A stretch of DNA of 64,000 bases from Escherichia coli. Its GTDB lineage: Bacteria > Pseudomonadota > Gammaproteobacteria > Enterobacterales > Enterobacteriaceae. The translations under genes and the position numbers were made by a program. The stretch lies in assembly GCF_003790525.1 (NCBI RefSeq), contig NZ_CP033635.1, one strand, 5' to 3'. Positions 60,091-63,389 of this stretch are shown here, piece after piece. How positions within the stretch are numbered: position 1 is the first letter of the stretch; every line of letters begins with the position of its first letter. The notes beneath the pieces were generated by a model. That model was not told where the DNA came from and did not search any database. It saw only the letters and a list, made by a program, of their open reading frames with translations.

Positions 60091-62187
60091 ATGGAAAAGC
60101 ACGGAGCTGAATTGCTTTTACAGCGGATGTTAGGAAATACCACCGCTACTTTCAGGGAAGGGCAATGGGAAGCCATAGATGCAGTGGTTAATCAGCGGCG
60201 AAAACTGCTGGTTGTACAGCGCACCGGCTGGGGGAAAAGTGCCGTGTACTTCATCGCCAGTAAAATCTTCCGCGATCGCGGCGCTGGCACGACAATTATC
60301 ATCTCTCCTTTGCTTGCCCTGATGCGTAACCAGGTTGCCGCCGCTGAACGGTTAGGTATTACGGCTGAAACGTTGAATTCTACAAACAGGGAAGAATGGC
60401 AGCGCATTAGCGATAAGTTGCTGCAAGGTGAGGTCGATTGCTTGCTGGTTTCCCCGGAACGTTTGGCAAACCAGGACTTTATCGAAACGGTTTTATATCC
60501 TATAGCCGATCGTATTGGCTTGCTTGTGGTCGACGAGGCGCACTGCATCTCTGATTGGGGCCACGATTTTCGCCCGGATTACCGACGTATATTAGATATT
60601 TTGCGCCAACTGCCTGCGAATACCCCTGTTCTGGGTACAACCGCGACAGCGAATAACCGTGTTGTTGAGGATATCCGTCAGCAATTGGGTGACATTGTGA
60701 TTCAGCGTGGAACGCTGGCTCGCGAAAGTTTGGCGCTTGATGCCTTAGTCTTAGGAGAACAGTCATCCCGTCTGGCATGGTTAGCAACGGTTATCCCTCA
60801 GTTTTCCAAATCGGGAATTGTTTATACCCTGACGACTCGCGATGCTGAACTTGTCGCCGAGTGGTTAAGGAAAAATGGTATCAGTGCATTTGCTTACTAC
60901 AGCGGCGTGACTTGTGAAGGCGCGGAAGATTCTAATACTGCCAGGGAATATCTGGAGCAGGCACTGCTGGCAAATAAAATCAAAGTGCTGGTCGCGACGA
61001 CGGCATTAGGTATGGGGTTTGATAAACCTGATTTAGGTTTCGTCATTCATTATCAGATGCCGGGGTCTATTGTCGGTTACTACCAACAGGTGGGGCGTGC
61101 CGGGCGTGCTATAGATTCCGCAGTTGGCATATTGCTTTGTGGTGGTGAAGACCGCGCTATTCATCAATTCTTCCGTGAAAGCGCCTTTCCTGCGGAGGCG
61201 CAAATTCATGAAATACTCAACGTACTTAGCGAGAATGACGGTCTTACCCTACGAGGCATTGAACAACGGACGAATCTTCGTTATGGGCAAATAGAAAAAG
61301 CACTGAAATTATTGGTAGCGGAAAATCCATCGCCTGTGGTGTATACCGAGAAATTATGGCGCAGAACTATCGTCAGTTTTTCTCCTGATCATGAACGAAT
61401 TAACCATTTGATGAATCAGAGAAAAAGTGAACTGGCAGACGTTGAAAGCTATATCACGACCAAGGAGTGCAAAATGCAATTTCTGCGCCGTGCACTCGAT
61501 GAGCCAAGTGCCGAACGTTGTGGTAAATGTAGCAGTTGTCTTCAGCATCCGTTATTGTCGCCCGACATTGATAGCGGCTTACTCCATGCGGCAAATTTAT
61601 TTATTAAACACGCTGACCTGCCGTTAAATCTCAATAAACAGATGGCAGCTGGGGCTTTTACTCAATACGGATTTAAAGGGAACTTGCCTGCGGGTTTACA
61701 AGGATCTACGGGGCGAATCCTTTCTCGTTGGGGAGATTCCGGGTGGGGAAAGCAGGTAGCACAGGAGAAAAAAACGGGGCGCTTAAGTGATGAGCTGGTA
61801 GAAGCATGTGCGGAAATGGTTTGCCAACGCTGGAATCCGCATCCTGAACCAACCTGGGTATGCTGCGTTCCTTCATTAAGGCACCTCGACCTGGTTCCTG
61901 ATTTTGCCCGGCGACTGGCGGCGAAACTTGGCTTACCTTTTATTGATGCCATTGAAAAAGTCGTGGACAATCCACCGCAGAAAATGCAGCAAAACCGTTT
62001 TCACCAGTGTCAAAATCTCGACGGGGCGTTTGTGATTATCCCTCCTTTGATGCCAGGTCCGGCGTTGCTGGTTGACGATATCGTGGATTCTGCATGGACG
62101 CTGACAGTTCTGACAGCACTGTTACGCCAGGCAGGTTGCCCGACGGTTTATCCTCTTGCCCTTGCGTCTACCTCGGTAAAAAATTGA
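60091..62187 (+). CDS. RecQ-family superfamily-2 helicase core with zinc-binding subdomain, fused to a C-terminal ComF/GntX-type phosphoribosyltransferase-like domain
   Basis: 698-aa ORF, AGGAG SD at 60081-60085. RecQ motifs in order: TTATFREGQ, TGWGKS (Walker A), ISPLLALMRNQ, DEAHCISDWGHDFRPDY, GTTATA, QQVGRAGR; Cys cluster TKECK...CGKCSSC; C-terminal GAFVIIPPLMPGPALLVDDIVDSAWT PRTase-like loop. Confidence 0.8.
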   Translation: MEKHGAELLLQRMLGNTTATFREGQWEAIDAVVNQRRKLLVVQRTGWGKSAVYFIASKIFRDRGAGTTIIISPLLALMRNQVAAAERLGITAETLNSTNREEWQRISDKLLQGEVDCLLVSPERLANQDFIETVLYPIADRIGLLVVDEAHCISDWGHDFRPDYRRILDILRQLPANTPVLGTTATANNRVVEDIRQQLGDIVIQRGTLARESLALDALVLGEQSSRLAWLATVIPQFSKSGIVYTLTTRDAELVAEWLRKNGISAFAYYSGVTCEGAEDSNTAREYLEQALLANKIKVLVATTALGMGFDKPDLGFVIHYQMPGSIVGYYQQVGRAGRAIDSAVGILLCGGEDRAIHQFFRESAFPAEAQIHEILNVLSENDGLTLRGIEQRTNLRYGQIEKALKLLVAENPSPVVYTEKLWRRTIVSFSPDHERINHLMNQRKSELADVESYITTKECKMQFLRRALDEPSAERCGKCSSCLQHPLLSPDIDSGLLHAANLFIKHADLPLNLNKQMAAGAFTQYGFKGNLPAGLQGSTGRILSRWGDSGWGKQVAQEKKTGRLSDELVEACAEMVCQRWNPHPEPTWVCCVPSLRHLDLVPDFARRLAAKLGLPFIDAIEKVVDNPPQKMQQNRFHQCQNLDGAFVIIPPLMPGPALLVDDIVDSAWTLTVLTALLRQAGCPTVYPLALASTSVKN

Positions 62188-63389
62188 TGAATCTTTCAGC
62201 CAATGCACAAGCGACCCTCCTGCTAACCAGCGATTTTTCTCGCGCGGCGGCGAGTGAGTATAAACCTCTTAGTAATAGTGAATGGGGGAAGTTTGCATTA
62301 TGGCTGAAGCACCAACGTATCAGTCCCGCCGATCTTCTGGTGCCGCAACCGCAAGAGAAACTTACAGGCTGGAGCGATCCGCGTATTTCTCAGGAGCGTA
62401 TTCTTGGCTTGCTGGCGCGTGGTCATAGTTTGGCGTTGGCGGTAGATAAGTGGCAACGCGCCGGTTTATGGATCTTAACCCGCGGAGATGCCGATTATCC
62501 CGTTCGCTTGAAAAACCGATTGCGAACGGATGCACCTCCCGTTTTATTTGGCTGCGGGAATAAAGCATTACTGCAAGCGGAAGGTATGGCGATTGTTGGC
62601 TCGCGAGATGCTCCGACTGCCGATTTGCGCTATACCCAACAACTGGCAGCGAAACTGGCCCAACAGGGGATTTGCGTTATCTCTGGTGGTGCGCGAGGTA
62701 TTGATGAATGTGCAATGGCGTCGGCACTGGAGGCCGGGGGAACTGCCGTTGGCGTATTAGCTGATAGCTTGTTAAAAACGAGTACGTTAGTGAAATGGCG
62801 TGAAGGGCTTATAGCAGGCAACCTGGTGTTGATTTCGCCGTTTTACCCAGAGGTACGTTTCACCGTCGGCAATGCGATGGCGCGAAATAAATATATTTAT
62901 TGCCTTGCTGAAAGCGCAATGGTTGTACGTGCGGGAATGACCGGTGGAACGATAACCGGGGCGATGGAGGCATTAAAACATCAGTGGCTGCCTGTGCAGG
63001 TTAAACCAAATCAGGATATGCAATCAGCCAATTCACGATTAGTAGAAAATGGGGCGTCATGGAGTACTGAACAGGCTGAGAATGTGACGTTCAGACTGCC
63101 AGACGTTACTGGGCTGATGTATGACAAAGCACTCCGTAACGCTCAACCAGAATTGTTTTCGCTGCACGAAGATGACGCAAATTACGCAGTGATGCCCTCG
63201 CATACCCCTGTCGATTTTTATCAACTTTTTGTGGCGGAACTGGCGATCCTTGCAAAGGAATCGATAAGTATTGAAAGGCTGGCGTCTTGTACTGGTTTAA
63301 CCATCGAACAAATTAGTGTGTGGCTGAACCGCGCAGAAGAAGAGGGAAGGGTTATCCGATTGGGCGAAGGTCATTATCAGTTCAGGTAA
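62187..63389 (+). CDS. DprA/Smf-like (SLOG-fold) protein with C-terminal winged-helix-like tail
   Basis: Start taken at ATG 62187 (MNLSANAQATLLL...), overlapping the helicase stop TGA by 1 nt; 400 aa; DprA hallmarks IVGSRDAPT, VISGGARGIDECAMASALEAGG, VGNAMARNKYIYCLA. Confidence 0.75.
   Translation: MNLSANAQATLLLTSDFSRAAASEYKPLSNSEWGKFALWLKHQRISPADLLVPQPQEKLTGWSDPRISQERILGLLARGHSLALAVDKWQRAGLWILTRGDADYPVRLKNRLRTDAPPVLFGCGNKALLQAEGMAIVGSRDAPTADLRYTQQLAAKLAQQGICVISGGARGIDECAMASALEAGGTAVGVLADSLLKTSTLVKWREGLIAGNLVLISPFYPEVRFTVGNAMARNKYIYCLAESAMVVRAGMTGGTITGAMEALKHQWLPVQVKPNQDMQSANSRLVENGASWSTEQAENVTFRLPDVTGLMYDKALRNAQPELFSLHEDDANYAVMPSHTPVDFYQLFVAELAILAKESISIERLASCTGLTIEQISVWLNRAEEEGRVIRLGEGHYQFR

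Follow-up and report, generated by a model that had tools for sequence, protein, structure and literature searches.

Assignment of a two-gene module between gntU and yhgN of Escherichia coli to the known rqlH-rqlI (PsyrTA) family, with its distribution and probable function

We analyzed a 64,000-nucleotide stretch of an Escherichia coli chromosome (NCBI RefSeq assembly GCF_003790525.1, contig NZ_CP033635.1; hereafter the window), which carries two plus-strand genes between gntU and yhgN. On profile matches and residue positions, we identify these genes as the rqlH-rqlI operon, the already known Escherichia member of the PsyrTA family. The first, rqlH (psyrT; 60091-62187), is an open reading frame of 698 amino acids, and the second, rqlI (psyrA; 62187-63389), which encodes 400 amino acids and is read as the antitoxin gene, is coupled to it by the sequence TGATG. 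A first-pass annotation of the same DNA had presented the pair as a candidate defence system, and the defence-system classifier PADLOC called PsyrT and PsyrA end to end: PsyrT (PDLC03928) scored 1058 bits on RqlH, residues 3-697 of 698 aligning with profile positions 5-687 of 689, and PsyrA (PDLC03927) scored 670 bits on RqlI (1-400 against 1-397 of 398). All the other PADLOC models, DpdF and ShosA among them, scored far lower. The pair also has the features expected of a PsyrTA system, namely a predicted toxin joining a helicase to a phosphoribosyltransferase (PRTase), a DprA-like antitoxin encoded directly downstream, the toxin gene in first place, and the residues K49, D148 and DIVD663, which in the window RqlH stand at the positions published for RqlH of E. 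coli F11. As judged by lengths and residue positions, nothing of substance separates the two beyond the strain: species, gene order, the overlapping or nearly overlapping junction, the sizes of 698 and 400 amino acids and the extent of the PRTase domain (residues 509-690) agree, as does the domain set of RqlI (DprA-like, Rossmann or "MoCo", helix-turn-helix).

RqlH was described in 2012 as a protein composed of a RecQ-like ATPase, a linker, a tetracysteine zinc domain and a ComF-like C-terminal PRTase domain, with no HRDC domain (Ordonez, Unciuleac & Shuman, PMC3378886). In Mycobacterium smegmatis RqlH, the 3'-5' translocase/helicase activity lies in residues 1-505 and the zinc domain at residues 435-499, and the protein was already noted to be missing from E. 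coli K-12 and found in other E. coli strains (PMC3378886). The F11 operon encodes an RqlH of 698 amino acids and an RqlI of 400, which are co-transcribed and co-immunoprecipitate (Russell & Mulvey 2015, PMC4670107). In the absence of RqlI, F11 RqlH provokes SOS induction, filamentation, sensitivity to DNA damage and mutagenesis, all neutralised by RqlI. This toxicity requires the PRTase domain, being lost with deletion of 509-690 or with the D663A or DIVD663EVME substitutions; the helicase mutants K49A and D148A alter the phenotype, and residues 1-250 of RqlI, with the DprA region, suffice for partial rescue (PMC4670107). The same paper gives rqlH followed by rqlI as the rule of gene order, and its discussion already draws the parallel with ComFA/ComFC/DprA and the analogy with the PsyrT/PsyrA toxin-antitoxin pair. 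PsyrTA, also called RqlHI, was named as a toxin-antitoxin pair (Sberro 2013) and reported as anti-phage in 2022 (Millman 2022). The novelty implied by the first-pass annotation therefore fails: the system was published in 2012 (PMC3378886), 2015 (PMC4670107) and 2022, and it has its own PADLOC models. Overall, its architecture, its toxin-antitoxin behaviour, its classification as a defence system and its absence from K-12 were all on record, and standard defence-finder tools detect the module.

The N-terminal part of RqlH is a RecQ-type helicase core. Pfam recognized DEAD (1.9e-25) and Helicase_C (4.2e-13) over approximately residues 20-347 (60148-61131, plus strand), the NCBIfam family model recQ_fam (TIGR00614) scored 254 bits, over its cut-off of 219.8, and both a Walker A motif GWGKS with K49 and a DEAHC motif with D148 are present. 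As found by sequence search of the PDB, the nearest solved protein is E. coli RecQ (1oyw, 1.3e-53), followed by BLM, RECQ1, RECQ5 and WRN, and these RecQ relatives cover just residues ~4-356 of RqlH, that is, the helicase core. A tetracysteine zinc-binding module, the counterpart of the zinc domain of M. smegmatis RqlH, follows at 61417-61542 (plus strand), indicated by a marginal RecQ_Zn_bind match (0.0014, residues 443-484) and by the cysteines C460, C477, C480 and C483; Pfam gave no RQC or HRDC match. M. smegmatis RqlH has the same architecture, likewise with no HRDC, and changes at the equivalents of K49 and D148 abolish its helicase activity. Unlike RqlH of E. coli, it lacks a partner RqlI in mycobacteria and has not been reported there as toxic. 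RqlH is also no housekeeping RecQ, with 298.5 bits against a cut-off of 640 for the equivalog model TIGR01389 and 227 against 1015 for NF008279.

Many of the PADLOC matches of RqlH are to DpdF of the Dpd system (7-deazaguanine DNA modification), which we considered and rejected. The NF041063 model gave 151 bits against a cut-off of 550, the PADLOC DpdF scores all lie well below PsyrT, and the neighbours of the module are gntU and yhgN only. Two of the models labelled DpdF, PDLC02869 (74 aa; 1e-53) and PDLC02866 (255 aa; 4e-14), match just the C-terminus of RqlH (residues 462-698, window 61474-62184); they look like PsyrT-type fragments that were mislabelled DpdF and could yield false Dpd calls.

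The C-terminal domain of RqlH was examined at the level of the fold because its sequence signal is weak: the Pribosyltran match of Pfam reaches only 0.014 (residues 605-683), and a PDB sequence search with the domain alone returned marginal APRT matches (E ~0.08). An AlphaFold model, computed from an alignment of 30 homologues, most of them with a precomputed PF00156 match, had a mean pLDDT (predicted local distance difference test) of 89.3 and a pTM (predicted template modelling score) of 0.86. In Foldseek, the solved matches of this model were all type I PRTases with a probability of ~1.0 and comprised APRT, HGXPRT, PurF, PRPP synthetase and ComF of Helicobacter pylori. Structure prediction thus confirms a type I PRTase fold for the domain (residues 509-690; 61615-62160, plus strand), which contains the phosphoribosyl pyrophosphate (PRPP) loop VDDIVDS. 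The first-pass annotation had called it a ComF/GntX-type domain; the PRTase part of this claim stood, whereas a likeness specific to ComF is indistinguishable here, by sequence or by fold search, from likeness to other type I PRTases. H. pylori ComF (7p0h) had the top query-normalised TM-score (0.48) but came 15th by E-value, amid APRT, PurF and HGXPRT, and the NCBIfam matches of the domain were marginal, with the GntX model (E = 0.023; 14 bits, cut-off 304) not ahead of PRPP synthetase or HGPRT. PGAP names one truncated rqlH fragment "ComF family protein". No PsyrT/RqlH structure was met in the PDB sequence searches with RqlH and its C-terminal domain.

RqlI is a DprA-like protein. Pfam found DNA_processg_A (PF02481, 5.5e-51) together with SLOG cluster 4, and the layout consists of a DprA-like SLOG/Rossmann domain at residues 89-293, with GGARGID at 167, followed by a helix-turn-helix region at the C-terminus. 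The PDB search matched RqlI to solved DprA structures, and to ShosA (9vzo) at 1.2e-7. However, its scores lie under the dprA equivalog cut-offs, at 103.2 against 191.15 bits for TIGR00732 and 81 against 495 for PRK10736. Taken together, RqlH and RqlI share folds with E. coli RecQ, DprA/Smf and ComF/GntX (superfamily 2 RecQ core, type I PRTase, DprA Rossmann domain) but score below all three equivalog cut-offs; they are paralogues and not the housekeeping proteins themselves. The profile searches thus bear out the RecQ, PRTase (weakly, at 0.014) and DprA relationships proposed at first pass, and the RecQ-type core, the cysteine-rich zinc subdomain and the DprA-like partner with GGARGID are upheld by Pfam, NCBIfam and residue positions.

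This set of domains had suggested a role in DNA uptake, as a compressed ComFA/ComFC/DprA set handling incoming single-stranded DNA (ssDNA). The argument for it is domain analogy only (the ComF-like C-terminal domain, with the TM-score to 7p0h given above, and the DprA-like domain of RqlI), and it meets several objections. RqlH belongs to the RecQ family, above the recQ_fam cut-off, and was not ComFA-like in the searches run; RqlI lies below the DprA equivalog cut-off, the GntX similarity is negligible, and no competence genes adjoin the locus. Moreover, natural transformation was undetected in the extraintestinal pathogenic E. coli isolates of the 2015 authors (PMC4670107), which leaves the uptake proposal of the first-pass annotation without support, and we regard this role as extremely improbable.

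The annotation had also mentioned an anti-phage pair of DprA and PRTase, of which the module would be a variant. That pair is ShosTA (Rousset et al. 2022), and the relationship holds: Rousset et al. tie the DprA and PRTase system of P2 hotspots to shosTA, syrTA and rqlHI, the two systems have in common a DprA-like antitoxin and a toxin dependent on a PRPP-binding PRTase, and both lead to filamentation and DNA damage. RqlHI is nevertheless a catalogued sister system and not an undiscovered variant. The N-terminus of ShosT has a pyrophosphatase fold whereas that of RqlH is a RecQ helicase, and ShosTA occupies P2/P4 hotspots whereas rqlHI stands at a fixed site of the core genome. Membership of ShosTA itself was rejected on this N-terminal difference, on the lack of any ShosT match and on the greater proximity of RqlI to PsyrA (670 bits) than to ShosA (PADLOC model, 6.3e-27, 93 bits). 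With the C-terminal domain alone, neither a ShosT model in PADLOC nor a ShosT chain in the PDB by sequence was found, and no ShosT appeared among the 25 best PADLOC matches shown for full-length RqlH.

To describe the distribution of the module, we surveyed 5426 complete E. coli genomes by megablast with the module alone. It was matched in 1650 of them (~30%), always on the chromosome (median copy number, one), and in 1642 of these 1650 the match spans 80% or more of the query, with an identity of 95-100%. Carriers include ST131 and ST1193 (sequence types), Nissle 1917, SMS-3-5-like strains and O157:H7; the window module is 100% identical to that of strain SC516 and shares ~97% identity with the alleles of ST131 and Nissle. 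When the search was made with the flanks, every occupied locus listed read gntU, RecQ family helicase, DprA, yhgN, and in non-carriers, which include K-12 derivatives and UTI89, the two flanks lie 174 bp apart. The junction survey thus places the module in ~30% of the genomes, not in essentially all of them, and not in K-12.

Comparison with K-12 confirmed the adjacency given at first pass: there gntU is followed directly by yhgN across a 56-bp spacer, in place of which the window has 3483 bp (59952-63434). Similarity to K-12 ends exactly at the stop codon of gntU and returns at the stop of yhgN, at ~63435. We found no integrase or transposase genes and no repeats bounding 59952-63434, in line with the accessory two-gene segment free of mobility genes proposed at first pass. 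A clean insertion of a mobile element with target duplication was rejected because the 56-bp spacer of K-12 is replaced outright and not split. The module of E. coli is associated with particular lineages, occupies one fixed chromosomal site between gntU and yhgN, and is not carried on a mobile element.

Decay of the module affects rqlH. The annotation of O157:H7 gives rqlH as frameshifted, with an internal stop, next to an intact rqlI. Compared with the window, the locus of O157:H7 strain F7508 (L003:301-2425) has a 1-nt deletion at 60606 and a 29-bp tandem duplication at 61878, the latter within the PRTase-coding region. We counted the duplication with a 40-mer spanning its junction, which can match only genomes that bear the duplication: it was found in 292 of the 5426 genomes, each time at 100% identity, and the sampled matches are O157:H7 and close relatives. 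Broken rqlH thus occurs in 292/1650 carriers (18%); those among the matches shown all belong to the O157:H7 lineage, whereas the annotations sampled outside O157:H7 name both proteins. The first-pass annotation would have counted frequent pseudogenisation against its own reading; the proportion is appreciable, but the loss in O157:H7 looks like a single clonal event that removed the toxin and not like general decay. In a further isolate, NRZ94505 (NZ_OZ501598.1, L004:1-5788), an ISEcp1-blaCTX-M-15 unit lies within rqlH at the gntU-yhgN site, accompanied by a WbuC-family cupin gene and a remnant of a Tn3-family transposase. This isolate has a truncated rqlH and keeps a PRTase fragment and an intact rqlI. 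A toxin-antitoxin pair would be expected to lose its toxin first, as in both of these cases.

The same toxin-first loss, in O157:H7 and in the ISEcp1-disrupted isolate, would also be expected of a selfish addiction module that brings its host no benefit and is kept as loss of the antitoxin or of the whole pair is penalised. Such a module would account for the way the pair behaves as toxin and antitoxin, both in shotgun cloning and in E. coli, and for the lack of any measurable fitness contribution of the rqlHI pair. However, the module is chromosomal in 1650/1650 carriers, never on a plasmid, and has no mobility genes, which leaves nothing to be addicted to. The near full-length conservation in 1642/1650 carriers and the defence phenotype reported for a family member also speak against pure selfishness, which we consider very unlikely.

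We hold with good confidence that rqlHI is a two-gene toxin-antitoxin / abortive-infection module. RqlH would act as a monomeric RecQ-like 3'-5' DNA helicase whose C-terminal PRTase, if unchecked, would be genotoxic through its PRPP-binding loop and cause SOS induction, filamentation and mutagenesis. RqlI, a DprA-like protein with an ssDNA-binding fold made by translational coupling, would bind RqlH and keep it harmless; the TGATG coupling fits a stoichiometric production of the two proteins. By extension from the sister system ShosTA, phage infection would break the restraint exerted by RqlI. The trigger could be a build-up of ssDNA or replication intermediates, or a shut-off of host translation that depletes a labile antitoxin, and the freed PRTase may then disrupt nucleotide/DNA metabolism, so that replication of host and phage would stop. 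Helicase activity, toxicity mapped to the PRTase, binding of RqlH to RqlI, the operon and the anti-phage activity of a PsyrTA system come from the work of others, and we infer the trigger, the PRTase substrate and the contribution of the helicase. In ShosTA, the toxin depends on PRPP and disturbs nucleotide metabolism as well as DNA replication (Pu 2025), and the DprA-like antitoxin is labile and binds ssDNA and RecA, with Gp0.7 as a trigger (Yang 2026). In Millman 2022, transformation with a psyrA deletion failed, possibly on account of toxicity, the DprA-like antitoxin is noted as common to PsyrTA and ShosTA, and the anti-phage activity was reported for a cloned PsyrTA family member.

Several observations weigh against a toxin-antitoxin / abortive-infection function. 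The native PsyrTA of E. coli NILS69 gave no detectable protection, whether deleted or expressed in K-12, with the phages tested, and deletion of rqlHI carried no fitness cost in the 2015 assays, in vitro and in mice (PMC4670107). The pair also has non-canonical traits for a toxin-antitoxin system, such as large proteins, the toxin gene in first place and more persisters in the double mutant (PMC4670107), and its locus lies outside any defence island, with no mobility genes nearby. The helicase-PRTase fusion is not intrinsically a toxin everywhere, since many Gram-positive bacteria have RqlH without RqlI (PMC4670107). In addition, the trigger model of ShosTA may not transfer, because RqlI binds RqlH directly while ShosA does not bind ShosT.

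Some of these observations are the ones expected if RqlH-RqlI were a DNA-maintenance or DNA-modification machine of the host chromosome, in which the helicase delivers the PRTase to phosphoribosylate or otherwise alter a base and RqlI helps to resolve the product; toxicity would then merely reflect a complex out of balance, with a phage defence that is secondary or absent (2015 paper, Fig 10, PMC4670107). Binding of RqlI to RqlH, DNA-stress phenotypes that worsen at low oxygen (PMC4670107), the fixed non-mobile chromosomal site and the absence of a phage phenotype for the native NILS69 copy agree with such a machine. Expression of PsyrTA is reported to be conserved between E. coli strains with the same genomic context, most Gram-positive bacteria with RqlH have no RqlI, and the mycobacterial RqlH stands in for a missing RecQ (PMC3378886), which is also to its credit. 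By contrast, the double mutant had no fitness defect in vitro or in mice, 70% of E. coli lack the module, K-12 and UTI89 among them, rqlH is inactivated across the O157:H7 lineage, and a PsyrTA system confers phage resistance. We judge this maintenance function unlikely.

The fixed core-genome site, the lack of mobility genes and the absence of a phage phenotype in the one native test prompted a related proposal, which we rate as quite unlikely: rqlHI might not be an abortive-infection pair in the first place, its PRTase being guided by the helicase to place a chemical mark on nucleic acid, for instance by phosphoribosylation of a base in unwound ssDNA, while RqlI would load the ssDNA or resolve the product. 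Such marking, if true, would be a new DNA-directed PRTase chemistry; the idea is already in the 2015 paper, and only its demonstration would be new. DNA uptake, selfish addiction and DNA maintenance were all ranked lower than the toxin-antitoxin / abortive-infection function.

The signals around the two genes were also examined. At the junction (...AAT TGA TG...), the stop codon of rqlH (62185-62187) and the ATG of rqlI (62187-62189) share one base, and an AGGAG Shine-Dalgarno sequence lies 7-11 nt 5' of the rqlH ATG. RefSeq/PGAP starts rqlI at an earlier ATG, 62094, which gives 431 amino acids and a 94-nt overlap with rqlH. We favour the start at 62187, the database start being probably mis-called, because the PsyrA profile spans protein residues 1-400 (profile 1-397 of 398) and the published size is 400 amino acids. 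The gntU gene lies upstream of rqlH, with its stop at 59951, and yhgN lies downstream on the opposite strand, with its stop at ~63435. Between gntU and rqlH, the terminator scan found a hairpin at 59963-59990 (plus strand) with a 12-bp stem, a 4-nt loop and the T-rich tail CATTTCTCTT, which the repeat scan also returned as a perfect 13-nt inverted repeat (I3); it probably serves as terminator for gntU and marks the left boundary of the strain-specific segment. A second inverted repeat (I11; 63392-63429, no strand assigned) lies between rqlI and yhgN, which converge. Its 13-nt arms at 63392-63404 and 63417-63429 (AAACAGGTGCCGC ... GCAGCACCTGTTT) are 92% complementary around a 12-nt loop, and it probably acts as a terminator in both directions and forms the right boundary of the segment. 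The open reading frames, the stop/start overlap, the Shine-Dalgarno sequence and the flanking hairpins are thus all present as first annotated. A simple consensus scan predicted no sigma-70 promoter at 59990-60091, a result that is uninformative given that expression of the operon is documented in the literature. The GC content, at 45-54%, is unremarkable.

Elsewhere, the window is colinear with SC516 but mosaic with respect to it, with 99.8% identity over 29546-50000 and ~96% over 1657-12189 and 18749-28976. The segments 1-1656 and 28976-29546 have no match in SC516, which has the copper-resistance genes pcoE/pcoS at the end matching window 1-1656. The SC516 annotation was used for the rqlHI locus only, because of this mosaic relationship. 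Beside yhhJ, the strain-variable segment 12190-18748 encodes an FGGY kinase, a phosphotransferase-system galactitol-type IIC subunit, a class II aldolase and a GntR regulator; SC516 has rhsB-yhhH-ISEc1 in its place, and the window segment is 100% identical to SMS-3-5. An 8-kb query spanning it (11500-19500) was covered over at least 80% in 1635 of the 5426 genomes, near the 1642 of rqlHI, and the two counts are probably close because both segments follow the same phylogroups. The RyhB small RNA (Rfam RF00057, 83 bits; 54684-54748, plus strand), expected there, is the sole Rfam family exceeding its gathering score within the window.

Overall, the biology proposed at first pass was essentially right: an accessory two-gene module that pairs a fusion of a RecQ-like helicase and a PRTase with a DprA paralogue, and a candidate defence system. 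To the published knowledge of this system, the survey adds a modest population context, with carriage in ~30% of complete E. coli genomes at one invariant site and an O157:H7 lineage in which the toxin is dead and the antitoxin kept. The residual interest of the module lies in its mechanism, that is, in the substrate of the PRTase, the job of the fused RecQ-like motor and the trigger.

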